From Wickerhamiella versatilis (lineage: Eukaryota), in assembly GCA_030867685.1 (NCBI GenBank), contig JAQOWU010000008.1:4526001-4590000 (forward strand): DNA of 64,000 nucleotides. The letters run 5' to 3'. Positions 1,079-63,197 of the stretch are shown here, piece after piece (positions within the stretch are counted from its first letter, which is position 1; every line of letters starts with the position of its first letter). The notes beneath the pieces were generated by a model, which was given only the letters and a program-made list of their open reading frames with translations, did no database searches and was not told the origin of the DNA. A program made the position numbers and the translations under genes.

Positions 1079-1112
1079 ACTATCTGAGACTGGTAAGACA
1101 ATGCAAGGTCGC
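1079..1112 (+). repeat. Dispersed boundary site, full 34-bp copy
   Basis: ACTATCTGAGACTGGTAAGACAATGCAAGGTCGC. Confidence 0.85.
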
Positions 1113-1456
1113 TTTCTTAGTCGATTTCAACCATGGCGCATGAGGCGAAGCAGTGCTATACAGCAAGCTGCGTAGTGTGGCTTGCTATCGCCAGATATGA
1201 TTGGCCCTATATGCTTTCTTTATTGGGGTTGGTTTTGCAGTCGCTGGATTCCTGTAAAAATACTGGTGTTGATTGAGGAAGAGGATTGCCCATTTGCGGA
1301 ACAGATAAGTGAATTCAAAGAGTCCGAGCATCAGCCACTATAAAAATCAATCTTAACTTTATTTCTTTGCTTAGGCCCAAATACATGGATCTAGATGAAT
1401 TTGCATCTCTTTACTCGTCATCAACGTATAGAAGTTTTTAGATCGAGAAACATTAA

Positions 1457-1488
1457 CCTATCTGGGCAGTTTCCCATATGCAAGATGT
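1457..1488 (+). repeat. Dispersed boundary site, degenerate (arms kept, centre diverged)
   Basis: CCTATCTGGGCAGTTTCCCATATGCAAGATGT. Confidence 0.5.
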
Positions 1489-1489
1489 A

Positions 1490-1994
1490 CTGTTATCAAT
1501 CACGGAGAATCTGGTAAAACGCTACGGGCAGCAATCCATATGTATTAAGGGCACAACAATTCTCAGTAAATTATAAATCAATAGGCAAAAAGGCTTGCTG
1601 GGACTTGCTCATCTACCCTCTGCAGACCACAAGGGCTACAAGTTTGTCGAACAAGTTTAGGCGCAGGGCTAGTCGAGCGCAAACTTTGCAATGATATTCC
1701 CGAATAAACCCTAGCGTGGTCACTCGCTATGCTAAAAATATGAGGCAGCAGTGTGTGTATTGCTGATGGCAGCTCAGACGTCACACGAAATTCATGTCGG
1801 ATGCAGCTGAGATACCGTACTTTAAGTGTATAAAATATATGAGTTTAACAACCCTTACCTACAATGGCACCAACCTCGAGATTCGGATCCTTTTCGTCCA
1901 AAATGATTAGGAGATCATTGTTCTCTTTGAGAGCTTGATCAAAAGCTCTAAATTCAACTGGAGCTCGTCTACCCGCTTCAGTACGTTTTGGCAT
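1490..1994 (-). pseudogene. FDC1: Decayed 5' remnant of ferulic acid decarboxylase (UbiD family), divergent from PAD1
   Basis: ATG at 1994 gives MPKRTEAGRRAPVEFRAFDQALKENNDLLIILDEKDPNLEVGAIVGKGC*, matching the Fdc1 N-terminus (EFRDF..LK..DL.....DPNLEVGAI). Further broken blocks SDHARV, PAPKLV..CSPC and LNTYGL follow. Confidence 0.82.
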
Positions 1995-2138
1995 GATATT
2001 GATTCCCCAAACTAGATAGTGACCACGTTATATATTAAACTACATTTACGTAAGCCGGGAAAGTTCTTAGCTATATATCTTAGTAATATAGTATCCGAAG
2101 AAGACATCATAGTAAGCGTACTTGTTGGTTGATATCGG

Positions 2139-2831
2139 ATGCTTAGGACGCTTGGGGTTAAATTTAGAGAAATTAATTCACGAGTACTCCCCCGGTGCAT
2201 GTCCACGAGCCCTGCATATAAAGTTGCATACGAAACAGCACGTTTGCCAAGAAAAAGGATTGTTCTCGCCCTTACAGGAGCTACCGGCTCAATTTATGGC
2301 ATAGAGGTTTTGCGAATGTTGAAACTACTTGACGTCGAAACACATGTAGTGGTTTCTAAGTGGGCAGAGGCAACCATGCGATATGAATGCGGGCTTAACG
2401 TCGGGGATATTAAAGATCTTTCTTCTCATCTTTATAGCTCGAGGGATCTTTCAGCAAGAATATCTTCGGGATCATTTCACATAGATGGTATGGTGATCGC
2501 CCCATGCAGTATGAAAACATTGGCAGCTTGTCGTATGGGCTTTGAGGAGAGCCTAATTACTCGTGCAGCGGGAGTCTGTCTCAAAGAAAGACGGAAGCTG
2601 GTGTTAGCTGTACGTGAAACTCCACTCAGCAGCATTCATCTTGAGAATATGTTGAGTTTATCGCAAAATGGTGCAGTCATATTTCCACCCGTACCCGCTT
2701 TCTATCACCACCCGGAAACTCTACAAGACGTTGTGAGACAGAGTGCATTAAGGATACTTGATCAGCTGGGTATTGAAGCAAATGATGCCTCTCGATGGAA
2801 TGGTGGGCTGTCAAGAACTCAAAAAAAGTAG
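2139..2831 (+). CDS. PAD1: Flavin prenyltransferase (UbiX/Pad1) with a mitochondrial-type N-terminal extension
   Basis: RIVLALTGATG, ISSGSF, APCSMKTLA, RETPL and PPVPAFY motifs. Confidence 0.95.
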   Translation: MLRTLGVKFREINSRVLPRCMSTSPAYKVAYETARLPRKRIVLALTGATGSIYGIEVLRMLKLLDVETHVVVSKWAEATMRYECGLNVGDIKDLSSHLYSSRDLSARISSGSFHIDGMVIAPCSMKTLAACRMGFEESLITRAAGVCLKERRKLVLAVRETPLSSIHLENMLSLSQNGAVIFPPVPAFYHHPETLQDVVRQSALRILDQLGIEANDASRWNGGLSRTQKK

Positions 2832-7702: not shown

Positions 7703-9436
7703 TCAATAGCTCCATCTGAAATCGAGTCGACGAAATCCTACATCTGTGGTACTCTCAAGGTAGTCCAACTGCTCCTCATTTGACATCGCATTCCATTTCT
7801 TCTCTTTCCTATGATTTAGCCAACGATACCAGACGAAAGAAAGAATCATTAAGACGCCACTCGCTATGCAGACTGCTATCATTTGAGTTAGACCTCGATG
7901 ATAGTAGGGCGCGTCGTCCTTCCTGAACACATTTGAAGAGACAATACCACTTACCTGGCTCATAATATTCACCAGGGCCCCAGAAACTGTCCTGACAGCA
8001 ACATCTCCTGAATTTTGAGACACCCATGGTACACTCATCGCTGTAACCTGAGGCCCTCCCAGTGCTAATGTCAAAATAGCATAAGAGCTCCAAGAGTTTT
8101 TAAGGAAATCTGGCCACCACCTCATAGCACATAGGAATGGAAGATGCCAAAGTGGTGTAAGTGCGAGAAATCCAATGTAGTGATTGAATCTAAAGGTGAG
8201 GTATGAAGTAGTTACAAGCGTTATAATTGCGATGAAGCATTTTGGAATCATCAATAAGTTTGTATCCAAGGTACCGAAACTTAATGGTGGCTGTCGGAGG
8301 ATGATAGGCAGGTAAGCCCCGACTGGTCCCGTTGGCATGTCCCCGATCAGTCTAATGAAGTACATAGGATACATCTCCCAGGACAAGATACCATCCAGAA
8401 GTTGTTTAAGGGTTAACGGTGTACGATTGTTCATAGTTCCCTTTGTGGGATCATCACGTAGAACACGGTTAACCACGATTTTTTCCTCACGGCGAGTGAA
8501 CCACCCCTTACGGCGAAACCAAGTGCGGGTCTGAGAAGGTGATGGAGGCATAAGAAAGAAAGCTGAAAGACCGATAAGTAGCGTGACGGCCCCTTCAATA
8601 ATGAAGATCCATTGCCAACCCTTTAAAGACGTGTGGCCTTCAATGTGAAATATCGCAAAGGCAAGTAAAGAAGAGAATGCCTGAATCAGAGGATTCGCAA
8701 TATAGAAAAGCCCGACACGAAAAGCAAGTTCTGGACCAGTATAGAAATAGCTGAGCCACAATCCTATATCAGGAATGAAACCCCCTTCTAGCATCCCTAC
8801 TAAAGCCCTACAGGCCAAGAAAGATGATCAATTGGTCATTTTGCTTTGGCAAATTGCAACAACTGACCATAGAGTCATTTGAATTGGAATCCACCTATCA
8901 GGACCAATCCATTTGGAGATAATATTACTGTTAGTTAGTAAACTGTCACGAAAAATAGTTTGAAGTACCTACCTTGGAAGTTCAGCCCCTAGAAAGCATA
9001 CAAGGTTAACAGTTGAACCAAGATTATAGTCATTAGTTGTGATGCCAACATCGTCGAACAATGACCCAGTAATGGCGTTCGCGAAGTTATACCTATCAAC
9101 ATCTAAAGCGAGAAAAGCGATGAATGCGAACAGAGTTGCATGCAGGTCTGTTTTCCATAAAACTCTTCTCTCCTCTTTTCGACTCCATTCTAACTCGGGA
9201 TCCAAAAGATGACGGTTTTCGTACTGGGATTTCTCGTACAGTTGACTCCATATCTTTGCCTCATCAGGCTTTGCAAAAACATCATCTCGGAGACTAGTAG
9301 CATCTTCAGATCCTATGGATCGCACAGAAGTAACATTCTTATCTTTCTTTTCCAAATCTGTGTCTGAATCGCTTCTCCTTTCGTCAGACACGGTGTCAAG
9401 GTCTCTGGTTTTATTATGGATCCAGAAATTTAACAT
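7703..9436 (-). pseudogene. MFS allantoate-permease-family (ACS) transporter with one 45-bp intron (8928-8972) and an in-frame TGA at 8828-8830
   Basis: Intron GTAGGT...TACTAACTAACAG joins ...[23 protein letters not shown]; the frame then reads SKMTN*SSFLACRALVGMLEGG. Confidence 0.8.
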
Positions 9437-9712: not shown

Positions 9713-9745
9713 TGAGACGGGTTAGATAATGCAAGATAGTCCACT
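9713..9745 (+). repeat. Dispersed boundary site
   Basis: TGAGACGGGTTAGATAATGCAAGATAGTCCACT. Confidence 0.88.
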
Positions 9746-11363: not shown

Positions 11364-11863
11364 TGTGCATAAAGGCGCTGGATCGTTAGACGGCGGAAGC
11401 CAGAGAGGCAGAATAATTGGGATTGGAGAGACAAATCCAAATCTACGCGGCAACTACCGATTCATGCTCTAGTTACAGCTATCTATAATAATCTTTCTCT
11501 TCGACAGGTTAAGGTCTGAAGATTTACTGAAATCCACCGGAAAGTGAGCGCAGCTTTACCATAATAAAATACAATTAAAATACAAGGATGTCACACGTTA
11601 CGCGATGTGAGGTTTTGTCCGCGATGGGTGAATAAATACACTCTAAAGAATGGATGAAGTCAGCATACTCATACTCATTTAAGAGCCTAATCAATGTACA
11701 CTTTGAAGATTGCAATAGTGAAGGCTATCGGTACCTAGGACTTAGCTTAGATTACCAAAGATAACAGCTCTTGAACTAGTATTTAAAGTCGTTCCATTGC
11801 TGCAAAGTGACCACCTTTAGACAAATGGTTTCAGTAAACTAGAGGTGAGTATCGGGGAAAATC

Positions 11864-11908
11864 TGCAAAGCCCACTTCACTACCTGAGGCTGGACAATGC
11901 AAGATATC
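11864..11908 (+). repeat. Dispersed boundary site, tandem junction form
   Basis: TGCAAAGCCCACTTCACTACCTGAGGCTGGACAATGCAAGATATC. Confidence 0.9.
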
Positions 11909-14239: not shown

Positions 14240-14611
14240 TATACAAATTCCAGCTGGCTGGCTAACAAGCCAGATGATATAACCATACCCACGGAACGGA
14301 CGTTATGCCCACCGACCATGACTAATTTTCATATCTCATTGAAGATCTCGCAACTATGAATAGTATTTTTTTTCAGATCCTTTAGAACATAGATAAGTAC
14401 ATCTAAGAGCCCAGGATCATGATAAAAAAAGTAACAATCTTATTTTATTGAATGTAGTTCATTTCCACGCATTAGTAAACGGCACTTCGTATCCATTGTC
14501 GTATTGGGCTAGGAGCAGTTACTCCAAAAATCAGATTTGCCTCTTTCAACTATGCTAATACCTACCAATGACATTGGTTGGACATCGCAAGTCGGCCACA
14601 CAATATATTTG

Positions 14612-14690
14612 CCGAACCGAAATATGCAGATAGATTTACCCGAACCGAAATATGCATACAGAATTAACCGAGCCGAGATGGGCATACGCA
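14612..14690. repeat. 28-bp tandem repeat, about 3 copies, CCG-rich
   Basis: CCGAACCGAAATATGCA at 14612 and 14640; degenerate CCGAGCCGAGATGGGCA at 14668. Confidence 0.85.
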
Positions 14691-15031: not shown

Positions 15032-15068
15032 CCTACCCGGCTCCCACAATGCAAGATATCCCACTCCA
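15032..15068 (+). repeat. Dispersed boundary site
   Basis: CCTACCCGGCTCCCACAATGCAAGATATCCCACTCCA. Confidence 0.78.
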
Positions 15069-15215: not shown

Positions 15216-15246
15216 TGGGCTATCTTGCATTGTCCAACCAGTTTCG
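15216..15246 (-). repeat. Dispersed boundary site, inverted, next to the RPS27 copy
   Basis: TGGGCTATCTTGCATTGTCCAACCAGTTTCG on + strand. Confidence 0.92.
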
Positions 15247-15254
15247 AAGACACA

Positions 15255-15452
15255 ATGGTTCTCGCTGTGGATATTTCGAACCTTTTGTCTGCATCTGAGG
15301 CTCACAATCACAAATTGAAGACCCTTGGCACTCAGCCACGCAGCAATTTCCTTGATATGAAATGCCAAGGCTGCCTGAACATCCCCGCCGTGTTCTCCCT
15401 CGCCCAGACCGTGGTAACCTGCGGCTCCTGCGCTACTGTTCTTTGCCAGCCC
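15255..15452 (+). pseudogene. RPS27: Diverged, 3'-truncated, intronless copy of 40S ribosomal protein S27
   Basis: MVLAVD...SEAHNHKLKTL..PRSNFLDMKCQGCLNI..VFS.AQTVVTCGSCATVLCQP; the conserved TGGKA..L..G.SFRRK tail is missing. Confidence 0.88.
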
Positions 15453-25530: not shown

Positions 25531-25546
25531 ATTGCAAGATAGCCCA
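25531..25546 (+). repeat. Dispersed boundary site, right half
   Basis: ATTGCAAGATAGCCCA, about 50 bp after the oxidase stop. Confidence 0.7.
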
Positions 25547-26195
25547 ATTTTATACATGATATAGCGTCAAATATAGCCTTTCGTCCTTTATCTGGAACAG
25601 CAAGTAAACAAACAGAACTTTCTTATACATTTGAATCCTATAGATATGGAATACATCCAAGAATTACGTAATTGAGTATTAGATACAGATATTGTATTCA
25701 ATCCGATAACGAAAAAAACATGCAGGAAGAACATACAATTATTCATGATGATAATATATCCGAAGGGGGTTTGTATTGTGATAGGCTATGACATAGCAAA
25801 TAGGATTGCTGGAAAGCATTTGAGCAGCGAAGATTATATACGTTTACAGCTTGATTTATCATTACAAAACTCCGGTAACCATAGTAGTGGTTGAATGGCT
25901 GTTAAACTTGAGTCGATGACAAAAAGCATATTTCTCATAGAATAAGATGCAAAGTTTCATAGATATTTGCCATAGTATGCTATCTTTTTGAATCGATGGG
26001 ATTTTCGACTATATATCCTTCTAGAATCAGCTTGTTTGGATTTTACTCGATTGCTATGTCTGCCAATGAATGCTCTATCTTACTGGACTTGTGGAATTCA
26101 CATGATGTGACCTACTTAGGAGATAAAACTTACTACCATCGAGATTTGTTGCCTAACCAGCTATCGTTACTAATATATATCTCTGCTCATTGTAG

Positions 26196-30101: not shown

Positions 30102-30131
30102 TACCAGACTGGCTGGACAATGCAGGATAGC
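30102..30131 (+). repeat. Dispersed boundary site
   Basis: TACCAGACTGGCTGGACAATGCAGGATAGC. Confidence 0.88.
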
Positions 30132-32132: not shown

Positions 32133-32501
32133 AAAATGCATGAATTCTCTTTTAACTTTCTTTTGAAGTCACGGACCAACCAATTCACCACTTAAAACTG
32201 ATTGGACACAGTGCGGGATGTAAGGATGACCGTTGGGTGATTCTCAAGGGAATTTCGTTTCAAAGCAGTTTTCGTGCCATGGCAGGAGAATGGTATGTGC
32301 AAGGTACCCCCACATGAAGGGAAGTAAGACGAACAATTATAGCCCACTACTCTTCCTGTGACCGCATACAACTGCGCTCAACACCCATCCTGAGAGAGCA
32401 ATAACGGCCTGTTATTCTGACATACCTTGATCCCCGCAAAGTCTGGGCTTACGATATATAGTATGTGTAATACAGTAGTAATATGAAATCCATTGTTAAG
32501 G

Positions 32502-33392: not shown

Positions 33393-33748
33393 GTTTTGCG
33401 CTTTTGCTGAGCTTTTTCGACGACTAGCTATTCACTACCATAAGGAAGAAAGGGGGGTGTTGTGCGAATGTCGTATTGAGAGAGAGCATCCAGTCTATCA
33501 GTTATTCAGTTACGACCTAATGATTTTGTTAAATATTCTAGGATCCATTTGTATCGGTCTTTCTACTCCGAATCTGAAGATAACACTTTTCTGTCTTTGC
33601 CAAATTTAACTTGAGCGGTAACTCGGGTCCACTTTTTACGACAGACGTTGCAAATTTGGACTAAATTAGTGCTGGAGAAATCCAGTGTTTTACTTTATAC
33701 TGCTGTTACTTCTCTGAGATGGAATGATTTTGATTACGTACTTTTTAG

Positions 33749-33779
33749 CTGAGAATAATTGGAAAATGCAAGATAGCCC
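33749..33779 (+). repeat. Dispersed boundary site
   Basis: CTGAGAATAATTGGAAAATGCAAGATAGCCC. Confidence 0.88.
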
Positions 33780-34565: not shown

Positions 34566-34999
34566 TCTGTGGAAATAAGGTGCAAGGGAATTTATTATAG
34601 ATCAACATGCTAGAAAGATTATTGGAGCGAAGAAATATTCAATTTTCGGTCTAATCTCTCTAGAAGAGAGGATATATAGCGGTCTAAGTATTCTCCGGTG
34701 TGTTGATCATGCCTAGTTCCGGGAAGAACTGACACTAGCGCTCCTTCCTTAACGAAAGAGGACTGAAAACGACAGTTCATTCACTGGGTCTGGTTAGATG
34801 ACTTAAGATAGCTTCTACGGGAATTTTAATAGAACTTATGGAGAGTATTTATGACATACTTTCGTATTTTGTTCTTAATACTATGCACGATGTTCAGCTT
34901 GAGTCATCTCATAGCCATATAGAGCACAGGTGCCAGCGAGACAATGACTTCTTTCCCTGGTTTCTTACAAATCTAGCTACGTCATGAGATACACACTCA

Positions 35000-38708: not shown

Positions 38709-38726
38709 ATGCAAGATAACCCACTT
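38709..38726 (+). repeat. Dispersed boundary site, right half
   Basis: ATGCAAGATAACCCACTT. Confidence 0.75.
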
Positions 38727-40210
38727 TTCTCATGACAATAACGATGGCAACCTCTTTTAATTCTAGGCATATAACGTCGAGTTTCTTTCAGTTCACTACG
38801 AGGTGGTGCTATATTCACCTCACGCCAGACAGGTTGTTGTCGCAATTGTTACTCTTTGTGGTTTGATTCAATCCTGGCTCTTGAAAGTTTCATTGCAAAT
38901 AATAGCTTTTTTTGAGAGGAGGTTTTTCATGTTTTTAGAGTATATAAGCAGATTATAATAATGTTCAAAGACTCCAATTCCAACTTCCATAAGTTAACCT
39001 TAGCTTACATTTTTCGAATTGAGTACAAATTGATAGATCCATAGGAGCTTTCAGGTATTTGTCAAACAGCGCATTCATTTTGATTCATGATAAATATGCC
39101 TCTGTGGTTCTTTCAAGTTACATATTATAACTATATCCATATGGTCACTAGATATGTATACTTAAAAATTGTGTTCAGCAAGGATACCAAAAATGCTTAC
39201 TAGTACAAAATTATACCATCTTTTGAGTAAAGAATGTAAGATCGGTATGTTATATCCTGAGATTGTTACGTGCATATGACAGATACCAATGCGTGATTCG
39301 GCAAATTACCGAGCTTCGCAGAGAACATTATTAGAGTCAACTAAAAAATAAAGAACTATGATTCTATAATTCATGTATGGCCTCGAAGCAAGCACGTAGG
39401 CCAATCAGACCTGTCGATTGGCTAGAACTATCGTTTGTGGATTTCGTTGGTTCCTGCTAAATGAAAATTATTGGAACTATCTTGCTTGGTTGGGCAACGG
39501 AAGAAACTAAACAAGCGCATAAACTTACGCCATACATAGTAATAGCATAAAAAATGAAGACACACAGACTCAAGAGTACTAGTTAGAATGTATGTAAAAT
39601 ATTAGGGCTGATGCTTGAGGGTTGGGGTTACGATGCGACATCACAACAAGCATTGCAGGAATATCTCTAGTCAGGAGCTTCATCACAGATGTTTTGTAGC
39701 ATGGTGCTCATTTTATTTCCTCAATATTGGCTCTTTTGTTAAGTATTTGTCTCGCAGGTTCTTCAGGAAATGCGTCGTATGCACCCGTAGCATTGATCAG
39801 TATTATGAAGAGCCTTGAGGCATACATGATTTAATGGTTACAAACGGTAGTCAAGACGTCCTAAACCGCTTTGCAAACTTTTTCAGAAATAAATTCTAGT
39901 AGATATAGAGTTAATGCTTGATGTATGGTAGTCCACTTTATACTCAATGTCTTCGGATATTATTCGTACGCCATGTTACTTATAAATATAGAAATGTGGA
40001 CAGAAGGCGAAGCCTGGAACAGGCAGCTATCAAGTTCAAATAGCAATACTCATTAGGAAATGTCCGTGAGGATTAGGAAACACACTGATTACCGGAGTAA
40101 ATGACATTCTCCGCATCACGCTCAGATCTGCGATCTGACAGACGCGGTATTTACACATGATGCAGCCCATGTTTTATTACTAACATCCTACGGACCACGC
40201 ACAACGCAGT

Positions 40211-41959: not shown

Positions 41960-42061
41960 GAAGCTAATAACATATTCTAAATCAGCATTGATTGGTTTAA
42001 GGTCCCTAGTAAATTCATGTTCCGGTCACGTGTATGAGTATTGTCTCCGATATATCACATG

Positions 42062-42093
42062 ACTCCGGGACTGGCTAGAAAACGCAAGATAGC
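42062..42093 (+). repeat. Dispersed boundary site
   Basis: ACTCCGGGACTGGCTAGAAAACGCAAGATAGC. Confidence 0.78.
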
Positions 42094-43312
42094 TACTCAA
42101 ATAATTAATTAAATTATGTATGAAATATTTTCGACTTGTTATCGATGGCTTGCACAACTAGGATTTCTCTTGAGTAACAAGTAATTCACAGAGTAGTTTA
42201 AATGCTTTTTTCAATGAGAAGCAATAGACTATGTAGGCAGGTGGTCGCCGTGGGCAGTAGAGGTGTCAGCAAGTCGGAAGTTTTCCTCATCACCTCTCTG
42301 TGCGCGCGGCTATTGTCATGGAGCTGCCAAAGAGCACGATATGGGGATGAGATTCCGTAATCAACGTTCCATGAAGAAGCCCGATGCTGACCTCCTAAGG
42401 CAGTCAAATACTCCATCTGTGGATATTACAAGAACAAGTGAAAGAAGGTAAATTACCCTCACCTTACCCGCATCATAACCCTTAAATAACGAGGTTTGCA
42501 TCTTAAGAAATCGCCGAGTAAGAATGCGAGACCTGAAGTACTCAACCCACCATACGGTAAATTTGATCTTTTTTTTTGCTTTAACCTATCTTGACTTCCT
42601 AAGACTTGTGAAAGGATTCAGAAATGTCAGCATAATATCAAGCGCGCCGTCGTAAACTGGCAATCGTTTACGACGCATCACTGTAGACGGAGACAATCAC
42701 TTTAAACTAACTAAGTGTGAATCATCGACCGCAGTGGTCAAATTTGTTTTTTTTTATTATTTATTGTGGTTTAATTTATGCTATTCCGAAGTAGCAAACT
42801 TTTTGTGATTATGATGTAAACGAGCATATGACATCATTCGACAAGTCGTTGTATGAGGGTAGCGAGCCATTTGGACCTGAACATGATGACAAAAATACCT
42901 TATGTTGATTTAAACTTTTGTTTTTTTGAGGTACTGTGTTGAAATTATCCACTCTACCTGCGACCATCCTAGTTTTAACGGTGAAGATCTGTGCCCCGAA
43001 AATATTACTAAGTTTCCAAATTTAGAATGATCAAATAGAAACAATTGTTCAAGAAGAGTGGCTGCTGACGTCCTAAAACATCAATTACATTTTTTTTTCA
43101 TTGTTCCTCTTCTCCCATATCTTGCATCGGCCGCGAGCCTCTCCCTGATAACCACGCACTCTAGGGATGCAGACGTTCACCTATAGCCCGTTGGCATGGT
43201 CGATGCAGTTAAGCTGGTGTGCGATACTGAATACCTTAAAATTTCTAGAGACCTCTTAGAAATTATTTTATTTTGAACAAATTTACAATTCCTTATAATC
43301 TTATGACTATTT

Positions 43313-43355
43313 GAACTTGTTGGAAAATGCAAGATACCCCACTTCACTACCTGAG
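43313..43355 (+). repeat. Boundary site at the left end of lipase cassette 1
   Basis: GAACTTGTTGGAAAATGCAAGATACCCCACTTCACTACCTGAG. Confidence 0.92.
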
Positions 43356-43806
43356 CGGCGTCAATGCAATGAATGATCAGTCGAAGCTAAATGGAAATAT
43401 ATGCTGAAAATTTTATGCATGTGCATATTAACCTCATCTGACTTCCTAAAGTATTAATAATTCTTGACTGGCTATCCTAGCTCGGCAGTCGTTGTCTAAC
43501 CCGCAGATCGACAATGTGAGACCAGTATTAGGGTTACCCAAGGTTTATTTGATCGTGATTATTAATTCGGGAATTAGCGCTACACGTCCTACACTTGTCT
43601 AATAGAGAGCATTCAAGATTCTGAGGCTTCCTAAGTCAGTTTTTGCTGTGAGAGGGATCCATACGCTGTGAAAAGGATAGCCCACTAATATCTAGCCAGG
43701 GTGTAAATTTGGGATGATCTTTTTGTAATACGTTACGACAATCCGGGCACGTAGATCAGAATATTAATGTCATAAATAATAATCTCGAAGGCTCCTTCCA
43801 TTAACT

Positions 43807-45135
43807 ATGATGTTTTTTCATACCATATTCACTCTAGGCACTGTTCTTGGTGCTGCTATACAAAAACGTACTGCTCCAAGTGATGATGCATTTTATACGG
43901 CTCCAGCAAATTTGACCAGCTATCGCCCGGGGGAGATTATCGACAGCCGCTCCGTTTATGCGCCGGCCGTTCTAAGAGAGGTGACTCAAATAAAATATGC
44001 TACGACCAATACTCAGAATTCTTCTTCATATACGATAGCCACCGTGGCATCCCCAGATAATATTCAGTATCCGCAAAAACTATTATCATTGCAAGATTGG
44101 CAGGATAGTTCAGGCAAAAATTGCGCGCCCAGCTATGGTTTCGCTACCGGTCTCCTTGGATCAGCTGGAATTACTACCTCAGTTATCGATATGCCCATAG
44201 TTCTTGAATGGGCCTTATCAAAAGGCTACTATGTTGTTGTTCCTGACCATGAGGGGCCCAATGGCGAGTTCACAGTGGGGCACACAGAAGGTCAGGCGGG
44301 ACTAGATGGGATCAGAGCAGCTATCTCCTACCTTAATCTCCCTGCAGACACAAGTACGGCAATTTATGGTTATAGTGGTGGCTCTCATGCCACAGCTTGG
44401 ATGGCAAATTTACATGAGTTTTATGCTCCTGAGATCAACATTGTCGGCTCAGCGACTGGAGGAACCGTTATTGACATGTATACGATGTACCACCAAATTG
44501 CTGGTACCCTTTTCTCGGGTTTCTCGTTTCCCGTTGTTGATAGTTTTGCTAGCGCTTATCCTGAACAGGGAGCACAGCTGATGTCGCACTTCAACAATAC
44601 AGCCAACGCTACACTTAATGATGCAGCTCAGGATGATGCATGTATCATCGAAGTCCTACTTAGAGGCGCTTTCCGTAATATTGGTGATGAGAGTGATCTT
44701 GATGATGTTTTATCTTTCCCTCCCGTAGTTGATATGTTTAATCGAGAAACCTTACTCAACAACGTGTCAAGTCTTACAGTATCGGCTCCAAAATTCCCTC
44801 GCTTTGATTATCATGCGCGTAATGACGAGATCGTTCCTTATTCAACAGCCGAGGCATACATCGAGCAGCAGTGCGCCCTTGGAGCAGATATCCAATCCAA
44901 GACATTTGATTTCGGTGGTCATGCTACTACGTTGATATTCGGTCTTCCTGGTGCTCTACAGTTCTTGGAGCAAGCATTTAATGGGGAAGTTCCCAAAGTG
45001 CAATGTGGTACTCAAAATTCTCAGTCGGTCAATATGAGCTCATCAAATGTGAATGAAGTGATTGGTAAGGGCACAGCCGATCGCCTTCGTGCATTTAATG
45101 GCAGGAACACGACGCTGGGAATGATTTCCTGGTAA
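43807..45135 (+). CDS. Secretory lipase (LIP/CAL-A family, lactone esterase-like), copy 1
   Basis: Signal peptide plus KR site, PSDDAFY, CAPSY, VPDHEG, GYSGG, GGH. Confidence 0.92.
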   Translation: MMFFHTIFTLGTVLGAAIQKRTAPSDDAFYTAPANLTSYRPGEIIDSRSVYAPAVLREVTQIKYATTNTQNSSSYTIATVASPDNIQYPQKLLSLQDWQDSSGKNCAPSYGFATGLLGSAGITTSVIDMPIVLEWALSKGYYVVVPDHEGPNGEFTVGHTEGQAGLDGIRAAISYLNLPADTSTAIYGYSGGSHATAWMANLHEFYAPEINIVGSATGGTVIDMYTMYHQIAGTLFSGFSFPVVDSFASAYPEQGAQLMSHFNNTANATLNDAAQDDACIIEVLLRGAFRNIGDESDLDDVLSFPPVVDMFNRETLLNNVSSLTVSAPKFPRFDYHARNDEIVPYSTAEAYIEQQCALGADIQSKTFDFGGHATTLIFGLPGALQFLEQAFNGEVPKVQCGTQNSQSVNMSSSNVNEVIGKGTADRLRAFNGRNTTLGMISW

Positions 45136-45208
45136 TGATGGCCAGGTGTAGTTGTACAGGTAAATACATGGCCATACACAACCTCTTGGTTTCCACAATA
45201 TAATCCAG

Positions 45209-45250
45209 TTTACTACTCGAGACTGTTTAGTCAACGCAAGATAGTCCACT
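45209..45250 (+). repeat. Boundary site at the right end of lipase cassette 1
   Basis: TTTACTACTCGAGACTGTTTAGTCAACGCAAGATAGTCCACT. Confidence 0.88.
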
Positions 45251-47336: not shown

Positions 47337-47364
47337 GAGATCTGGTTGGACAATGCAAGATAAC
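47337..47364 (+). repeat. Dispersed boundary site, about 50 bp upstream of the KRE6 ATG
   Basis: GAGATCTGGTTGGACAATGCAAGATAAC. Confidence 0.9.
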
Positions 47365-47757
47365 TCGCCCTCTATTTTTAGAAATGTGGCTCAAGTAGGG
47401 TAAGGATGTCAACATCTGGTCTTTCTTGTAGAAATAAAGCCTAGTTGATTCGGCATTTTTCTCCATCTAGCTAAGTTTTATTTCAAACCGGTTGCACGAT
47501 GTAGAATATATATCATCATAGTGTCGATATCTCATTAATAAGGTGTGAATGTGGGGAAATGTACAAATTCCACCCCGGGTTATACGAGTTCATGACTCAT
47601 GGAATCAGTAAGCTATTGTTTTATAAGGACGTAGCTAATACCTTTCGGAAAGTGTAACTGAATTATAAACTCCATCTAGAGTGGCGATAATATCATATTT
47701 TGTTTTTGAAAGAACCCAACAAAGCACCCAAAATCGATCGCGATCACCATGTTCTTA

Positions 47758-47783
47758 ACCTGAGACTGGTTGGACGATACAAG
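47758..47783 (+). repeat. Dispersed boundary site
   Basis: ACCTGAGACTGGTTGGACGATACAAG. Confidence 0.88.
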
Positions 47784-48975: not shown

Positions 48976-49563
48976 TACAAGAACAGCAAGCGAACACTTT
49001 ACTATACCTACATCTGTCAGAGGATAGAAATGTTTTAGATTGGGCAATATTGTCAAATAGAATACCACTAGCAGTGCAAAACAGCCCACTTCAGTACCTG
49101 ATACCTGTTGGATTGTGAGCGATAGGACCATGAGGTGACATAGTGCAAAATGGTGCGGCAAAGTAGGGACCCATTTAACGTTCAGTGCCGTAAATACGTC
49201 ATTTTTTTATGTGGTTTTATTTATATTATACTAAGATCTTCATCTATAAGATCATTATTTTGATGCCGGTGCAAGTAGGATGTGATTATTGAGCAAAGCG
49301 TGAGTAAAGACATTACTTACCACACCTGCGATATGTCACCCTCGGAAGGGACTCTCTAATCTAAAAGACTTGCAAATTACGCATTTGAAGGTATTCCCTA
49401 TCTGCAGTCGATGATCGTCAGGATTCATTTGACTTTTATGGTCTGAACAGATCTTGTAGATATATTTACCGTACCAGCTGCACTTTGCTCCTTTTGTGTG
49501 ATATGAAACAATAGTAATATCTATAGCTACCATGAGCTAGTTATAGCGTTCCCTTTATTCCAA

Positions 49564-52050: not shown

Positions 52051-52093
52051 GACTGGTTGAGCAATACAAGATATCCCACTTCACTACCTGAGA
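52051..52093 (+). repeat. Boundary site at the left end of lipase cassette 2
   Basis: GACTGGTTGAGCAATACAAGATATCCCACTTCACTACCTGAGA. Confidence 0.92.
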
Positions 52094-52612
52094 TACGTCA
52101 ACACAATAAATGATCAGTCAAAACCAAATGGAAATTTATGTTAGAAGTTTTATGTTGGTGCATTTTAATTTCACCAGACTCCCTAAAGTATTAGCGTTTC
52201 TTGACTCTATATTCTAGCTCTTAGCAGGACCTCATGAAGCTCGACTATTATTTACTATGCATCCCCGCAAATCACAATGTGAGACCAGTTGATTAGGGTT
52301 GCCCACTTTGTTTGTTTCGCGTAGGTATTAATGCGGGGATCATAATTCCTGCCCTGCCATGTACTTGTCTGATAGAGAGCATTCAAGATTCTGAGATTTC
52401 CTAAATTTTCGCTAATAGAGTGGAAATGCAATTAGTGCTTAAATGTACAGTAATGATTAATAAGTCGGTATTTGTCACGAGGGGGTCCGTACGCCCTGAA
52501 AAGGGCCAGGTTATAAATTTCGAGTGGGGTATGATACATTCCGAGAATCCTGGCATGTAGATCAGAGCACGAAAGCCATAAATAAGGATCTCAAAGACCC
52601 ATGTTGTTAACA

Positions 52613-53941: not shown

Positions 53942-54014
53942 AGATGACTAGGTGAACTTGTGCAGGTGAATAAATTGTCGTAGATGAGTTCTCGTTTTCC
54001 ATAATATACTCCAG

Positions 54015-54056
54015 TTTACTACTCGAGACTGGTTGGAGAATGTAAGATAGCCCACT
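54015..54056 (+). repeat. Boundary site at the right end of lipase cassette 2
   Basis: TTTACTACTCGAGACTGGTTGGAGAATGTAAGATAGCCCACT. Confidence 0.92.
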
Positions 54057-56074: not shown

Positions 56075-56092
56075 TGGTTGGACAATGAAAGA
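56075..56092 (+). repeat. Dispersed boundary site, partial
   Basis: TGGTTGGACAATGAAAGA. Confidence 0.7.
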
Positions 56093-56142: not shown

Positions 56143-58025
56143 TCAGCATATACAACACTCATCGTGAGAGTCAGCAACCTCCACAGATTGAATTGGTTCT
56201 GAGGAACTCGCAGCAGACACTGGTGAAATATAACTGGGTTTATTTATGACTTCAGAAACCGCATTTACCATCTCACAAAGGGGGTTTTTGTCATAATCGA
56301 AAGGCCAGGTGTCTTGTGACACTATTTTTGAAATTTTGTCCATGGATTTGTTATCAAAACCAGTTATTTCGCTATCCATACAATTCGATTGCGTTTTCAA
56401 AAGAATTGCCAGATAAACTGCAATTGCACTGCGAACTGAAAGGCTTAAACTGCCAATTTCCTGGGTACAAGTGTCAAATAACAGCTGTGCAGCATTAGTG
56501 AGCTTTTGCAGTGAAGCCCGTCTTAATTCCAACGAACAGAACACATTAAACGCTGCAAACGAATGAACAGCTATAACTGTATGGTAATATTCTGCCCTCA
56601 ACTCGACCCAAGGAAAGGAGCACAGGATGCTTTGAATATCTCCTTTGCCAGAAGGGTTTATATTCCACAAATCTTCTTCTATGTGAAACCGCCAGGTCTC
56701 AAGCCGCTGATCGAGTCTAGTCATATCCTCAACGATTTGTTGCAATGACACCCTTCTTGTGCCTACTGAGCCGAGAAGTTTACACACATCATCATAAATA
56801 AGATGGATTCCAGTAAAATAATCGAAATTTTGAACCACAATCACTGAAAGCGTCTTCTTTGATAGACTACTCACTCCTTTATCGGACAAAATAGGTTTAA
56901 TCGATAAATGAATACCAAATGAGTAGTTGATAGCGGTTAATAATAACCATACATACTCACGGCGTCCAGATTCAGCTTTAGAATACTTTGAGTTTTCCTC
57001 CTCGCTGTCTAACCCAAGGCTTCTAGCCATAGCCACCACTGTCTCTAGGAAATGCGGTACTGAATGAACAGAGCTAAAAACAGTCATCGTAAAAAGTAGT
57101 GACAAACACAACCTCACCTCTAGAAACCCGGGGTCGCTAAGGGTCAGAACCCGGAGTGTTTCCAGTGCTTTAAGATACGCACAGGCCTCTTGCGACCTCA
57201 CTACGTATGGAACATCACTCTTTGATTCAGCTCTTATTCCGTTTATGCCAATTATAAATATTGTAGAGAAAATTCCATTTCTGATATGTTCAGGATAAGA
57301 ATTAATGCCAAGTGCAAGGTCCTCTGGTGAAATTAGGACATGGAAAAAATTATCTTTCATTTTCATATAGATGTCAAGACACCTTTCAAAAATTATACTG
57401 TCATAAGTGACTATACTTGGAATATTGAGTAACTGTGAAAAGGATAACTGATAAGCTCTCCACATTGCTCGAGAATAATCATTAAGACGCTGCCACAACA
57501 ATAGATCTCCTGTGGCTTGCAAGAGATGTGCTACATCCCCCGGTGTCAAAATTGAGCAGAATATATTTGGCGCATAAGATATATTGCTTAACGACATGTC
57601 GACAGTCTGTTGCTTAAAGCAGAAAAGTCCTTCATTGAATTCTCTTTTTTGAACGTATTTTCAGTGTCTGTACTAGGAGGTAACTCCGTATCTGGACGAC
57701 TTCGACTTATCGCGTTTGGACTATGTTCATGTTCATGTTCATGCCCATGCTGAGTTGAGACTGAGACTAGTCTGGGAGGGCATATCGGTTCGTCATGATG
57801 GTCTCTTTCATATTTATTTTCCAAGTTCTCAATTCTCAACATGAGGGCAGTCCATAATTCTCTGGCAGGTGTCCGCGAGTGACTTCGATAAACGCATCGC
57901 AGTCCAGAACTGGAACAGTTTTCACATGCCGGAGAAGCTGCATCACAGCGTGCTTTACGTTGACGGCAACTCTCACACGCTATCGATGCACGTACTCGGC
58001 TTCTTTTTTCAACTCCCCCAGACAT
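56143..58025 (-). pseudogene. Zn2Cys6 transcription factor split by a frameshift at about 57590-57660 (or a sequencing error)
   Basis: ACESCRQRKARC...CENC...C in the 5' ORF; fungal TF middle domain (MARSLGL...RREYVW) in an overlapping second frame; no clear intron. Confidence 0.7.
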
Positions 58026-58792
58026 ACCAACAGGGCGAATCGATGATAAGTAATTATGTAGTCATACGTCACAGACTAGACTCTCCGTGAGAGATACATG
58101 ATAGCGTAGATTGTTGTGGATCGTTGGAAAATACACGAGTATTTGACAGTTTGACAAAACCAAGCAAACCAGCTTACTAGCAATGTACCTTTCAAGTGAA
58201 CTTCGTCGTTAGAGTTAGAGATAATGGCTTTAATTGTAGTAGTATGGGTTTGCAAATTGTTTAGAGAGCATAAGCAGGGGTGTTGGAGTGATCTATAAGG
58301 ATCACTTGCTATTTTATAGGAGGAAGAGACGAGAAAGTGCTATTATGGGGTCTTTTCTTTTGAAGGTATTCGCGAATATACTGAACCATGACGGCATGTT
58401 CTAACTCTATAGTGACTGGTTGCCTCGTTATCATTAATAACCTAACCCCTTGGATATAGTTTTCCGTTCGGCGCTTACCCAGTGTAAGTGGCTTAGGAGC
58501 CAGACCCAGATCTACAACCCTAGTAGTGATTGGCGGCTAACCTTTTCCGAAACTATGACCTATAGTTACTTTTGGGTATATGTGAAGCTTAACAGCATAT
58601 TATAATATATCACAATCATAATAATATAGTTATCTATATGTTAAGACTGCTTTCTCAATATCTATAAAGTACGTGCGTGTCATTGACTGGTACTCCATCT
58701 GATCATATGACTAATATATGCCTCTCATACCCTAGCTTTATCAGGTCAGTAGACTAGACTAAGCTGCACTGTCTAACAAGTATCAGGTTGCT

Positions 58793-60460: not shown

Positions 60461-60770
60461 TTACATAGATACTGTTTAAATATGCTAACGCGGAATAATG
60501 GCTTCAATCAACTAACTAGGATTATTACTATTGTATGATACAAAGTGTCTCATTTATGGTTGAATTTCTGTGACAATTGATTGTCTGTCATGCAAAATCT
60601 GAGGCAACTCTCCAGCTTGTGCCAGTTGGTAGATCTTGAGCAGATGTTCAAGTTCTTGCTATAATAAATAGAAACATCAAACGTATGCATTTATTGGATT
60701 TTTGTTTTGCTTTTAGAGAAGTTACTAGATAAAAAAATCCTAGTGTCTTTCATATATGATTTTCATTTCC

Positions 60771-62426
60771 TCATATAAGCTCAAACTCCTCACTAGGGGC
60801 GGAATACACACACTTTCCCGCAAGCCAAGTTTGTTGAACCTGCCAGTTTTGAAAGTTTTGAGACTTAATATCTACTATTTTCTCAGGGAATATCACAAAA
60901 TCTGCCGATTTTTTTACTGTAATACTTCCAAGCTCTGAGCCCCAGCCGCAAATATCAGCCGGAGCTTGGGTATAGGCATAAATTGCCTCATCAAAGCTCA
61001 GTGCATTCTCGATATACCATGCCTCCCCTTGCTTCTCCCTTAAAACCGCAGAGCTCAACTGAGATACTGGGTTCTCATAAGCTGTTGGCCAATCACTACC
61101 CAGTACAACTTTTGCACCACTTGAGAGCAATGTTTGCCATGCGTAACTGAGAGGAAGTCTTTGCTGTCCAAGACGCTGGGATTGGTAGCACCCTGCAGTG
61201 GCATGATTAGGTTGCACCGAAGCAACAATATTTCCTTCGCTGAAACGAGTAATCTGGTCCCGTTTAATCACTTCAATGTGTTCTATCCTGTTTGGAAGTG
61301 GGCTCATGGTTTTTGAGGAGCTATTTTCGAAAGCATTCAGTGCCATTCTCACACCCCTGTCACCAATAGCATGAATAGATACAGGGAATCCAGAATAGTT
61401 TGCTGCGGCGACAAGGTGCTCAAGTTCTTCCTGTCCTGTAATGGGCTCGCCTCTGAAGTGATCCACACATCTATCACTATATTCTTCGTCAAGCGCTGCG
61501 GTATAGTTTGAAAGTGTACCATCAACAACTAGCTTGATGTATCCAAACTCAAATTTGTGATTGTTTTCTTTTGACACACCATCAAGATATTTTTTGTCAC
61601 TCCCTCTTAGTTCTTGAAAATTTACTCTGTGACGCTGGTCGGGTGAAATTAGCATTAGACCAAACCATATGCGCATGTAAATAGGTTCCTTTTCACGAAT
61701 TAGTTCATTATACAGATCGAAGTTGGGATTCATATCGTGCACGCCAGTCACACCGATACTGTTAAAATGAGTAATGATGTCTCTTATTTCACTTGTGGTC
61801 ATTTTATATGCCTTTTTGAAGACTTCGTTATCTTCTACGAGACTTATAGCTGTTTCCTTCAACTCACCTGTTAAACACCCTTTAGAGTCGTGAACCACCT
61901 CACCTCCTTCTGGCGCCTCTGTTTCGTCATTTATATCGAGAAGATTTAGTGCCGCAGTATTCAGCCATAACGAATGAAAGTCTATATCGCGTAATGCCAT
62001 AGGCACATTGACTGTAGCAGCATCGACATCTTCACGAGAAGGAAGAACTTGTTCCTCCTTGTCATCTAAAATAGACAGATCCCACCTTCCACCGAATAGC
62101 CATTCCCCCTCCTTTTTAGTTTTTGCAACATTCCTGATGAGTCCCAGCCATTCAGATTTCTTTGTAGAACCAAATAGATCAACGCCTTTGGCTAATTCTA
62201 TTCCACCGATGAGATGGGTATGTGAGTCAATTATTCCTGGAAGGATTGATGCCCCCTGAACGTCCAAAACTTGGGTGTGGCTCGTGCCCTTGAGAGATTC
62301 TATATAAGCATTGGTGCCAACAGCCAGGAAACGCCCGTCCTTTACAGCGAAGGCTTCTGCTCGAGGTTTTGAAGGATCACTAGTTCGTACATCCCCGTTA
62401 ATCACCACGAGATCTGGAACAAACAT
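60771..62426 (-). CDS. Amidohydrolase 3 (YtcJ-like), bacterial-like
   Basis: PGIIDSHTH, KLVVDG, HAIGDRG, RIEH, LGSDWP. Confidence 0.92.
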   Translation of the reverse strand: MFVPDLVVINGDVRTSDPSKPRAEAFAVKDGRFLAVGTNAYIESLKGTSHTQVLDVQGASILPGIIDSHTHLIGGIELAKGVDLFGSTKKSEWLGLIRNVAKTKKEGEWLFGGRWDLSILDDKEEQVLPSREDVDAATVNVPMALRDIDFHSLWLNTAALNLLDINDETEAPEGGEVVHDSKGCLTGELKETAISLVEDNEVFKKAYKMTTSEIRDIITHFNSIGVTGVHDMNPNFDLYNELIREKEPIYMRIWFGLMLISPDQRHRVNFQELRGSDKKYLDGVSKENNHKFEFGYIKLVVDGTLSNYTAALDEEYSDRCVDHFRGEPITGQEELEHLVAAANYSGFPVSIHAIGDRGVRMALNAFENSSSKTMSPLPNRIEHIEVIKRDQITRFSEGNIVASVQPNHATAGCYQSQRLGQQRLPLSYAWQTLLSSGAKVVLGSDWPTAYENPVSQLSSAVLREKQGEAWYIENALSFDEAIYAYTQAPADICGWGSELGSITVKKSADFVIFPEKIVDIKSQNFQNWQVQQTWLAGKCVYSAPSEEFELI

Positions 62427-62672
62427 TTACGTGCAAGCGCAAGTTCAAGTACAATTTTAAACGGACCAAAGACTTGACAGTTATGCTTACGAACTACACT
62501 TTATTTCTCCAAGGACACCGGATCTTAATTCCTAGGTGAGTCAGCATACTGGGTACAAGCGGCATACTTTTCCGAAACCAAAGCCGGATTATGTAAGATA
62601 ATGTGCCTTGTATGGGAATGAGCTTGTCAGTCAGTGCACAATGTAAATCACTTCTCTAGCGGCTGGGGTCAT

Positions 62673-62706
62673 GCTATCTGAGACTAGTTGGACGGTGAAA
62701 GATAGT
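62673..62706 (+). repeat. Dispersed boundary site, full 34-bp copy
   Basis: GCTATCTGAGACTAGTTGGACGGTGAAAGATAGT. Confidence 0.85.
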
Positions 62707-63197
62707 TTATCTGGTTCCCAGGAATTATGAGGGCAAGCAAGCCTCATTCAAGCATAGTATGATAGAGGAGGTCAAGACTGTTTTCTCAGTGAATACTATA
62801 TACTCTGTAGCACCGCCCCAGCTCAGATACATATAGATTATTAGTACATTGGTACTGGTAGTTATAGTCTACAGAAATACAGTATCGTATTGCATATGTT
62901 ATCGACCTCGTGATAATCTTGACCGAGGCCCTTTCTCGGGCAAGGGTGGTTAGGCTATGTTTTGGGAACTACCATCGTCGCTTGGGTTGGCTGGTTTATC
63001 AAACCCGATTGATGTGAAGTATCCCTGGAGCTTAGTGAATAAGAATCATGGCTTGAGAACATTAATTTTTAGCGGCTGAAGGGATTTAATTACCTGAGAC
63101 TAGTAATATTAGCATTTTGTAACTAGGTGTTGAAGAAACAAAGTCCACGCAAGTTCTTCAACTATATTATATTTTTTTAAATGGAACACGCAAATAT

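Follow-up and report, generated by a model that had tools for sequence, protein, structure and literature searches.

A degenerate 41-bp repeat lies between about half of the genes of a 64-kb stretch of Wickerhamiella versatilis DNA (hereafter the window), and its copies probably mark old seams of inserted or copied gene-sized blocks rather than the sites of a working integron. The copies are real, intergenic, of one prevailing polarity, shorter than two units and independently diverged, and they bound the only recent duplication in the window. The reading favored here, at a probability of roughly 40%, is that the window is part of a mosaic, accessory stretch of the genome of a budding yeast (order Dipodascales). 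The copies at its seams would then be fossils of one homogeneous 41-bp direct-repeat source, left where break repair or homologous recombination inserted blocks or duplicated them.

Detection of the repeat family

The repeat unit, CTGAGACTGGTTGGACAATGCAAGATAGCCCACTTCACTAC, is 41 bp long. An earlier 34-bp consensus has no match in the window at up to three mismatches, which indicates that all copies are degenerate, and profile-like scans were therefore used instead. Wrap-around local alignment against three tandem 41-bp units (+1/-1/-2), with a score of at least 16 defining a strong copy, returns 22 copies on the + strand and two on the - strand (Table 1), or one per 2.7 kb. The chance level is about 0.7 matches per strand, with 0-1 per run in six first-order Markov shuffles of one strand each. 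A 27-bp core allowed up to seven mismatches gives 12 matches, 11 of them on the + strand, while mononucleotide shuffles give none in 19 of 20 cases and a single match in the remaining one. Apart from this motif, no other over-represented words were found in the window.

The motif family that the sequence-only reading had described in intergenic DNA is thus real, and its catalog of copies holds in part. Of the 21 + copies listed as clear, 19 score at least 16, and those at 13141 (14) and 63091 (13, the background level) fall below. Two of the six weaker + copies (32196 and 32338) reach the threshold; those at 38290 and 43675 score 11 and 13, and those at 1457 and 37068 are absent from alignment matches scoring at least 11. 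Among the six inverted copies, only that at 15216 is strong, with a score of 29, whereas those at 7201, 13417, 20059, 21506 and 34535 score 11-14. Two strong copies had been missed, at 49072-49125 (+, 28) and 58741-58788 (-, 21).

An origin of the motif from tRNA or 5S rRNA was rejected on the basis of Rfam and ARAGORN. No Rfam model of a structured RNA, snoRNAs and others included, matches when the gathering thresholds are applied, and a limit relaxed to E up to 10 adds just two weak matches, unrelated and away from the copies; ARAGORN finds no tRNA gene in the window.

Table 1. Strong copies of the 41-bp motif in the window and the interior of the LIPa module
Feature	Position	Strand	Extent and surroundings
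Motif copy	1079..1112	+	0.83 unit, 85% identity; 147 bp 5' of GH3 ORF (- strand)
Motif copy	9713..9745	+	0.80 unit, 88% identity
Motif copy	11856..11908	+	1.37 units, past one unit; 90 bp 5' of arginase-family ORF
Motif copy	14562..14633	+	followed by 28-bp tandem repeat 14612-14687 sharing ATGCA-GATAG core
Motif copy	15046..15068	+	right part only, 0.56 unit
Inverted copy	15216..15282	-	28/28 consensus bases at 15216-15243; these end 11 bp before RPS27-like ATG (15255)
Motif copy	25533..25559	+	55 bp 3' of BBE-type oxidase ORF
Motif copy	30106..30131	+	79 bp 5' of FadJ-like ORF
Motif copy	32180..32219	+	48 bp 3' of FadJ-like ORF
Motif copy	32339..32375	+	127 bp 5' of Abh1 ORF
Motif copy	33746..33779	+	
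Motif copy	34773..34812	+	70% identity
Motif copy	38709..38737	+	right part
Motif copy	42049..42093	+	90 bp 3' of Say1c ORF
Best copy	43306..43372	+	score 40, 1.68 units; left edge of LIPa module
LIPa module interior	43373..45195	+	435-bp upstream region, secretory lipase ORF 43807-45135, 61-bp tail
Motif copy	45196..45250	+	1.34 units; right edge of LIPa module, convergent gap with KRE6
Motif copy	47337..47374	+	53 bp 5' of KRE6 ATG (KRE6 on - strand)
Motif copy	47758..47783	+	left part
Motif copy	49072..49125	+	1.32 units
Motif copy	52051..52114	+	left edge of LIPb module; paralogue of 43306 copy
Motif copy	54003..54056	+	right edge of LIPb module, in 143-bp convergent gap
Motif copy	56075..56092	+	0.44 unit
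Inverted copy	58741..58788	-	5 bp 5' of MFS2 ATG
Motif copy	62674..62705	+	

Placement and polarity

All 24 strong copies lie outside ORFs of at least 120 aa, which occupy 61% of the window; the weak tail of the copy at 15216-15282 overlaps the start of the 84-aa RPS27-like ORF. The statement that the motif punctuates most gene boundaries is generous, as a strong copy is present in 17 of the 33 intergenic intervals and five more hold marginal copies only. The 16 intervals that lack a strong copy count against the proposed seams. Many copies are 5-150 bp from a start or stop codon, the closeness already noticed in the sequence. Several of them stand 5-90 bp from an ATG, where a seam would cut the gene off from most of its promoter, a second point against the favored reading.

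Polarity is strongly biased (22:2, binomial p=3.6e-5) in a window with 16 genes on the + strand and 18 on the - strand, which bears out the claim of a + bias whatever the strand of the neighboring gene. Copies are found on the 5' side and on the 3' side of genes of either strand, and their presence in divergent, tandem and convergent gaps indicates that placement is not tied to gene orientation. Gene-oriented promoter or terminator behavior was not found, since all four gene configurations occur, convergent gaps included.

Strictly intergenic placement near gene ends and a fixed polarity would also be expected of a polar protein-binding element, such as a replication-fork barrier or a chromatin-domain or silencer element, whose orientation is set by the chromosome arm and for which recombination is a by-product. 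This explanation is unlikely, as about half of the intergenic gaps have no copy, and the structure of the copies described below fits it poorly. The same 22:2 bias would be unexpected for transposition.

Structure and divergence of the copies

The copies are 18-73 bp long (0.44-1.78 units) and variable in phase; six extend across the border between units, and all stay below two units. Mean identity to the consensus is only 84%, conservation is distributed evenly across all 41 positions with no short, tight core, and some copies are cut down to either half of the unit. The low identity, the even conservation and the truncation argue against a protein-binding element.

Divergence is star-like, with adjacent copies sharing derived states no more than random pairs do (p=0.77), and along the window neither identity (rho 0.01) nor length (rho -0.05) shows a gradient. 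The pattern suggests one source, from which the copies decayed independently. Serial duplication of the site was rejected, the neighbor-similarity and gradient tests both being negative.

Phase is less favorable to the proposed seams. Continuity across inserts would be expected if one array had been split. It is seen at 4 of the 21 junctions where 2.05 would be expected, an excess that is not significant (p about 0.1), which counts against that reading. In addition, copies start at unit positions 36-3 in 10 of 22 cases and end at 22-33 in 16 of 22, a clustering more in keeping with a defined site than with an array broken at random.

The unit is asymmetric by inspection, with no dyad symmetry beyond TTG-N7-CAA. 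Six copy-bearing strands folded as single-stranded DNA give minimum free energies of -2.1 to -5.7 kcal/mol, with z-scores of -0.5 to +1.5 relative to shuffles, so that no hairpin is apparent. Terminal inverted repeats, poly(A) and conserved sequence beyond the unit are absent, and the copy ends vary, unlike the defined termini of MITE- or SINE-type elements. That a miniature non-autonomous mobile element with a preference for intergenic DNA spread in a burst is highly improbable: star-like divergence with similar ages, and a 5' extent more variable than the 3' end, would suit such a burst, as would a family dispersed in single copies over many loci, but copies of only 18-73 bp that lack terminal inverted repeats, poly(A) and conserved flanks would not.

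Cargo genes and the search for a recombinase

The long gaps were examined for domains as stop-free intergenic ORFs, of which 16 of 49 were tested. Recombinase, integrase, transposase and reverse transcriptase domains are absent from the 34 ORFs of the window and from these 16, and the earlier remark that no recombinase is visible is borne out to that extent; the same result, for transposase and reverse transcriptase, speaks against the mobile element.

The description of many cargo genes as bacterial-like holds at the family level only. Among ten proteins compared with NCBIfam, eight matched something, with the best equivalogs far below their cut-offs, and two gave no match or a weak one. An exception is the UbiX/PAD1 protein, for which two subfamily models of the UbiX family are passed. 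GC3 is uniform across genes (0.34-0.49), and, together with the sub-cut-off equivalog matches, it gives no indication of recent horizontal transfer of the cargo. For a 600-aa protein of the window, a look-up in a protein atlas was uninformative.

A duplicated lipase module

The proposal that the motif stands at the edges of gene-sized modules finds support in LIPa and LIPb, which represent the sole recent, datable module duplication in the window and are 81% identical over 2 kb. Their homology starts inside one motif copy and stops just after the next, and the outer flanks are unrelated. A duplication that ends at the motif would also be expected at fork-stalling sites, and in this respect agrees with a binding element.

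Comparison between strains and loci

Between strains, no gain or loss of a module at motif copies was seen over 20 kb containing 12 strong copies. In an isolate about 1-3% diverged, four structural differences in this stretch are bridged by long flanks on both sides, and all four lie outside strong copies. Strain differences number three in 103 bp of motif and ten in 475 bp of other intergenic DNA, a small sample that gives no sign of constraint and shows no reduced polymorphism of the kind a binding element would predict. The copy at 30106-30131 has no difference inside it and eight in the preceding 44 bp. A homologous contig about 10% diverged carries a fuller copy at the position matching 32339-32375, and this retention at a matching place favors a binding element.

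Contigs from one isolate and three metagenomes hold the motif at further loci, and those contigs continue into additional motif units at single-copy depth, which indicates a family dispersed across the genome. It follows that one array alone cannot account for the family, a further difficulty for the favored reading. High-depth contigs on motif copies were not found in the isolate run, which is weak evidence, as short repeat contigs may be filtered out.

One contig of metagenome X18 has a depth of 119.6 (baseline about 3) and contains a perfect unit junction; a multi-copy array or another organism are both possible sources.

In public collections, the motif was absent from metagenome contigs (searched as a tandem two-core pattern and a 20-mer), genome contigs and viral contigs. 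Six motif 18-mers, on both strands, had no match in the literature. Among the matches listed for 41-bp repeats or motifs, none concerned yeast intergenic repeats and one was a 41-bp centromere motif of Mucor, and nothing relevant was among the matches listed for integron-like arrays in yeast.

Origin of the copies

The fossil-seam interpretation draws on the 22:2 polarity, intergenic placement, variable phase, spread conservation, star-like decay and the LIPa/LIPb edges. It also draws on the missing hairpin and dyad, the negative search for a recombinase, strain differences that fall off the copies, the lack of constraint and the dispersed family. A short tandem array or attachment-like repeat would have been a preferred place of breakage or recombination, and gene-sized blocks may have entered it, whichever way round, during break repair or homologous recombination. 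With each entry the repeat would have been split or duplicated without a change of polarity, and at least one module, the lipase block, could later have been copied by way of homology between leftover pieces. Such a history would not need a dedicated recombinase, and the process now looks inactive. It does, however, require at least two dozen insertions, all into about 1 kb of repeat, and no source array was seen.

Another possibility is that the copies derive from a tandem repeat of telomeres, or one associated with them, and were left inside the chromosome as interstitial relics by repeated end healing and terminal addition. Relics left at each terminal addition would all point towards the telomere, which may be what the uniform polarity in the window reflects, and the tandem structure, variable phase, short length, star-like derivation from one template and accessory gene content would fit. 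The 41-bp unit, however, has no GT bias, unlike the known telomere repeats of budding yeasts, which are 8-26 bp long. The isolate run yielded no high-depth contig on the copies, weak evidence given that short repeat contigs may be filtered out, and the extra contigs are at single-copy depth; there is no age gradient along the window, and about 24 healing events in 64 kb seem too many. A study of the Wickerhamiella/Starmerella clade describes telomere-adjacent "end" domains of more than 500 kb that collect acquired genes (PMC13376923). On balance, telomeric relics appear distinctly unlikely.

A dedicated system of site-specific accretion, of the integron, tandem-island or CRISPR-adaptation type, is very unlikely. 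In it, an enzyme encoded elsewhere would insert modules at the 34-41-bp site and regenerate or duplicate that site every time. Uniform site polarity independent of cargo orientation, preferred start and end frames, a duplicated module bounded by two sites and functionally unrelated cargo would all suit such a system. Nevertheless, the copies lack the dyad or hairpin of tyrosine recombinase sites and attC, are truncated or longer than one unit, and show no distal-to-proximal age gradient; the ORFs tested in the window include no recombinase, 12 sites show no cassette gain or loss between strains, and copy polymorphism looks neutral.

Relation to known systems

The window resembles arrays built with integron attC or Acinetobacter pdif sites, as short sites in one orientation punctuate an array of unrelated genes and a module bounded by two sites has been copied. 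The analogy drawn from the sequence is supported for the module edges, the gene-independent polarity and the ends of LIPa and LIPb, but not for hairpin or dyad, constant ends, array gradient, recombinase or strain differences at the copies. attC folds as a hairpin and pdif consists of two inverted arms around a spacer, whereas the yeast motif has neither, and it also lacks the inverted arms around a short spacer that characterize Xer-, FRT- and lox-type sites of tyrosine recombinases. Integron cassettes are mostly promoterless and co-oriented, in contrast to the yeast genes, which lie on both strands with upstream regions of their own (53-490 bp inside modules). An integron has an adjacent IntI gene with attI and Pc; among the ORFs tested in the window no integrase was found, and no cassette polymorphism was seen between strains. 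pdif sites alternate in orientation around each module, whereas 22 of the 24 yeast copies point one way.

Interstitial telomere-like repeats border subtelomeric duplicated blocks in human subtelomeres and in bdelloid rotifer telomeric regions. They share with the yeast motif the form of short, degenerate, one-way pieces of a tandem repeat at the joints of unrelated blocks in an accessory, end-like region, but the yeast unit is 41 bp and not GT-rich, its density is far higher, and a terminal array was not seen. In trypanosomes, 70-bp repeats flank silent VSG cassettes, lying upstream of genes of one family and co-oriented with them. Imperfect repeats of a few tens of bases beside most genes of an array, offering a homology border for cassette copying, are common to both cases. 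The yeast cargo, by contrast, consists of unrelated genes of either strand, with LIPa/LIPb as the only documented instance of copying.

Bacterial genomic islands that accumulate in tandem at a single att site depend on an integrase and on an att core, for which a tRNA gene end commonly serves. Their accretion similarly leaves one-polarity direct repeats between independently acquired blocks, but the window has no tRNA gene, its tested ORFs include no integrase, and the host is a eukaryote. The mimps of Fusarium, about 200 bp long with terminal inverted repeats, are found in promoters upstream of effector genes on accessory chromosomes and have no chromosome-wide polarity. Like the yeast motif, they are short dispersed repeats marking accessory genes of a fungus; the yeast copies differ in being 18-73 bp long, of one prevailing polarity and free of terminal inverted repeats.

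Implications for accessory regions of yeasts

The question touched by these results is how yeasts assemble and reshuffle accessory regions, some of which are rich in horizontally acquired genes. A 2026 Wickerhamiella/Starmerella study describes few transposons and no Starship elements, and the insertion mechanism is not named (PMC13376923). A short, polar, countable mark at module seams would make the assembly of such regions testable. Breakpoints of acquisition and of rearrangement could be compared with its positions, a reversal of its polarity from one chromosome arm to the other could be looked for, and the protein or repair pathway that acts on it could be sought. If a gene-accretion system did operate in this yeast, cutting a polar 41-bp site and regenerating or duplicating it for each gene-sized block taken up, with its enzyme elsewhere in the genome, the expected outcome would be long arrays at chromosome ends, in which sites of one polarity separate unrelated accessory genes, some of them perhaps foreign. 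Such a system, improbable as it is, would be a functional counterpart of integron- or CRISPR-type accretion in a eukaryote. If the motif is no more than a decayed repeat, it would still be useful for working out in which order the insertions of this lineage took place.

Recurrence and anatomy of the 41-bp repeat

Pieces of a 41-bp repeat recur between the genes of the window far more often than expected by chance, which bears out the central observation of the sequence-only reading. A 27-bp core, searched with up to 7 mismatches, gives 12 matches against 0-1 in 20 shuffles, and wrap-around alignment to the 41-bp unit yields 22 matches on the + strand and 2 on the - strand at a score of at least 16 (strong copies), where 6 Markov shuffles yield 0-1 per strand. 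The clearly over-represented words in the window are motif words only. The 34-bp consensus proposed earlier has no copy in the window within 3 mismatches, and all copies are therefore degenerate. The graded list of copies proposed with it survives in part: 19 of 21 'clear', 2 of 6 'weaker' and 1 of 6 'inverted' entries reach the strong score, most others fall at 11-14 (marginal copies), which is background, and two are absent. Two strong copies were missing from that list (see table).

The copies measure 18-73 bp, or 0.44-1.78 units, and six of them cross the unit border; lengths and phases like these show an underlying tandem repeat with a period of 41 bp. Of 22 copies, 10 start at phases 36-3 and 16 end at phases 22-33, a clustering that recovers the proposed 34/41-bp site, although many copies retain just one half or the other of the unit. 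Conservation extends across the whole unit rather than a short core. The motif contains no hairpin or dyad, its copies have no Rfam or tRNA match, and no sequence conserved past the unit was found around them. Identity to the consensus averages 0.84, with no trend along the window in identity (rho 0.01) or length (rho -0.05), and adjacent copies share no excess of derived changes over random pairs (p=0.77). Thus, the copies look as if they had decayed independently, at a similar age, from a single homogeneous source, and not as if they had been copied serially from one another.

Position and polarity of the copies

All 24 strong copies lie outside ORFs of at least 120 aa, which occupy 61% of the window (p ~1e-10). 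The motif had been said to punctuate most gene boundaries; a strong copy is present in 17 of the 33 intergenic intervals, and 5 more hold marginal copies alone. For many copies, a start or stop codon is 5-150 bp away. Copies are found on the 5' as well as the 3' side of genes, whichever strand the gene is on, and also in convergent gaps, namely between LIPa (one of two secretory lipase modules) and KRE6, and between LIPb (the other) and a 600-aa ORF; a gene-oriented promoter or terminator element is therefore ruled out. Five intervals at 15.7-24.1 kb, inside a putative catabolic cluster, contain only marginal copies, as if the cluster were a single block. A strong copy at 25533 separates the BBE-type oxidase from the Zn2Cys6 regulator.

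The + orientation of the copies, regardless of the strand of the neighbouring gene, is confirmed at 22:2 (p=3.6e-5), with 16 genes on the + and 18 on the - strand. This polarity is the most informative feature of the family, and calls for either a chromosome-directional process or an origin in one oriented source. The copies could also represent a protein-binding element that is itself polar, which is judged unlikely, while a miniature mobile element, the candidate hit hardest by the polarity, is the least probable explanation of all.

Gene content and the duplicated lipase module

The window is compact, intron-poor fungal DNA (GC ~0.42) with 34 recognisable genes, the majority of which serve accessory metabolism. 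These include a GH3 fragment, UbiX/PAD1, a sulfatase, three Say1-type esterases and four further alpha/beta hydrolases, two secretory LIP lipases, SDR and epimerase enzymes, two FAD monooxygenases, a BBE-type oxidase, a FadJ-like protein, an amidohydrolase, and MFS transporters. Regulators comprise two Zn2Cys6 factors, a C2H2 protein and an arrestin-like protein. KRE6 is the one cell-wall gene; its closest named relatives are in Trichomonascus, Nadsonia, Sugiyamaella and Blastobotrys (54-59% identity), and two further relatives reach 83% and 75%. The overall picture fits a Dipodascales yeast with a small genome. The description of the cargo as bacterial-like applies at the family level only, as the best equivalog matches fall far under the NCBIfam cut-offs and GC3 is uniform (0.34-0.49).

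Self-comparison of the window reveals one large duplication, that of LIPa and LIPb, at 81% identity. The homology begins within the upstream motif copy (43306; 52051), covers the LIP ORF together with ~440-490 bp of DNA ahead of it and a tail of 61-62 bp, and ends just past the downstream motif copy (45250; 54056); the outer DNA is unrelated. The duplication directly attests to the past copying of a motif-to-motif module to a new location.

Coordinates of features in the window
Position	Strand	Feature	Observation
2139-2831		UbiX/PAD1 gene	Accessory-metabolism gene
7703-9508	-	MFS ORF lacking its N-terminal part	Match spans profile positions 100-346; 179-aa ORF without family match directly upstream; suggests either a transporter gene that was disrupted or an intron that went unrecognised
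11265-11363		Local tandem repeat	51-bp unit x1.9
14612-14687		28-bp tandem repeat x2.7	Right after motif copy 14562; ATGCA-GATAG core common to both
15255-15509	+	Intronless 84-aa ORF	Ribosomal_S27e match at profile positions 1-40 of 55 (E=9e-16), C-terminus unrelated; probably an RPS27 copy, either processed or decayed, in an accessory region; a perfect-match inverted motif copy stops 11 bp ahead of its ATG
15691-27941		Putative catabolic-cluster-like gene run	Two FAD monooxygenases, NAD-dependent epimerase/NmrA-like protein, Abhydrolase_3 esterase, MFS transporter, BBE-type oxidase, Zn2Cys6 regulator
34465-34580		X13 deletion
34997-35396		Local tandem duplication, ~205 bp	34997-35202 vs 35189-35396, 72% identity
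38492/38495		X13 insertion	2865 bp
39631-39734		X13 deletion
40039-40132		X13 deletion
43315-45254		LIPa duplication	Pairs with 52052-54060
48721-48972	+	Weak UbiD_C fragment	E=1.9e-4, under the Pfam cut-off, in the long gap past KRE6; may be a decayed FDC1-like gene; the window also has a UbiX/PAD1 gene (2139-2831)
49072	+	Strong motif copy	Newly found
52052-54060		LIPb duplication	Pairs with 43315-45254
56143-58025	-	Zn2Cys6 regulator in two overlapping ORFs	Zn_clus domain in 57588-58025, rest in 56143-57597; points to a frameshift or short intron
58741	-	Strong motif copy	Newly found

Strain and metagenome comparison

Metagenomes from food, food fermentation and sediment contain the stretch, as does one isolate (contigs totalling ~9.7 Mb). 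Positions 30001-50000 were compared with contigs of this isolate, X13, and three metagenomes. The X13 contigs among those listed follow the order of the window, with some parts of the compared stretch lacking a listed piece. X13 carries one insertion, ~200 bp from the closest motif pieces, and three deletions; none of the four lies at a strong copy, and one deletion takes out a marginal inverted copy. Joints with short sides (20-42 letters), several of which coincide with motif copies, were taken as contigs from other loci. Strain differences number 3 in 103 bp of motif against 10 in 475 bp of other intergenic DNA, in a sub-region with 37 of 43 differences listed, which gives no indication of constraint on the copies.

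Several contigs from other loci overlap motif copies and continue into a next unit, each with single-copy depth in the isolate. Members of the family are thus scattered through the genome, and the isolate contigs showed no satellite-like array. A fuller copy occupies the same place in a homologue of the Abh1 upstream region that is 10% diverged; the copies are therefore old. Additionally, one contig of metagenome X18, at depth 119.6 (baseline ~3), spans a perfect unit junction (43355/47342), and could represent either an array of many copies or another, abundant organism with the same repeat.

Possible origins of the motif copies

The proposed analogy to integron cassettes or pdif modules fails on structure, as the window offers no hairpin or dyad, co-oriented promoterless cassettes, alternating sites or integrase (none found among the ORFs tested), and the strain comparison lends it no support. 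A dedicated enzyme system for accretion is improbable. The broader proposal, in which the ends of modules that were inserted or copied are marked by the motif, agrees with the polarity of the copies, their intergenic seam positions and the lipase module.

Six 18-mers of the motif match no paper in full-text searches, and such an element is undescribed among the matches listed for '41-bp' repeats and integron-like arrays in yeast. In Wickerhamiella/Starmerella yeasts, very long telomere-adjacent 'end' domains are reported to gather acquired genes, with few transposons and no Starships, and the part of that study consulted names no sequence mark (PMC13376923, 2026). Telomere-associated relics of terminal additions are rather doubtful as an explanation of the copies, ranking a little below the protein-binding element and above an accretion system.

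The best-supported reading, at a probability of about 0.4, is that the copies are fossil seams. Several observations weaken it: continuity of phase across the inserts falls short of significance (p ~0.1), the frame favoured by the copies suggests a defined site, other loci carry the motif too, and some copies are so near an ATG that a seam would sever the promoter. According to the fossil-seam reading, a homogeneous 41-bp repeat would have been a favoured spot for breakage or recombination, into which blocks may have been inserted in either orientation through break repair or homologous recombination. Remnants of less than 2 units would have retained the original polarity, and these pieces may then have mediated at least one module duplication.
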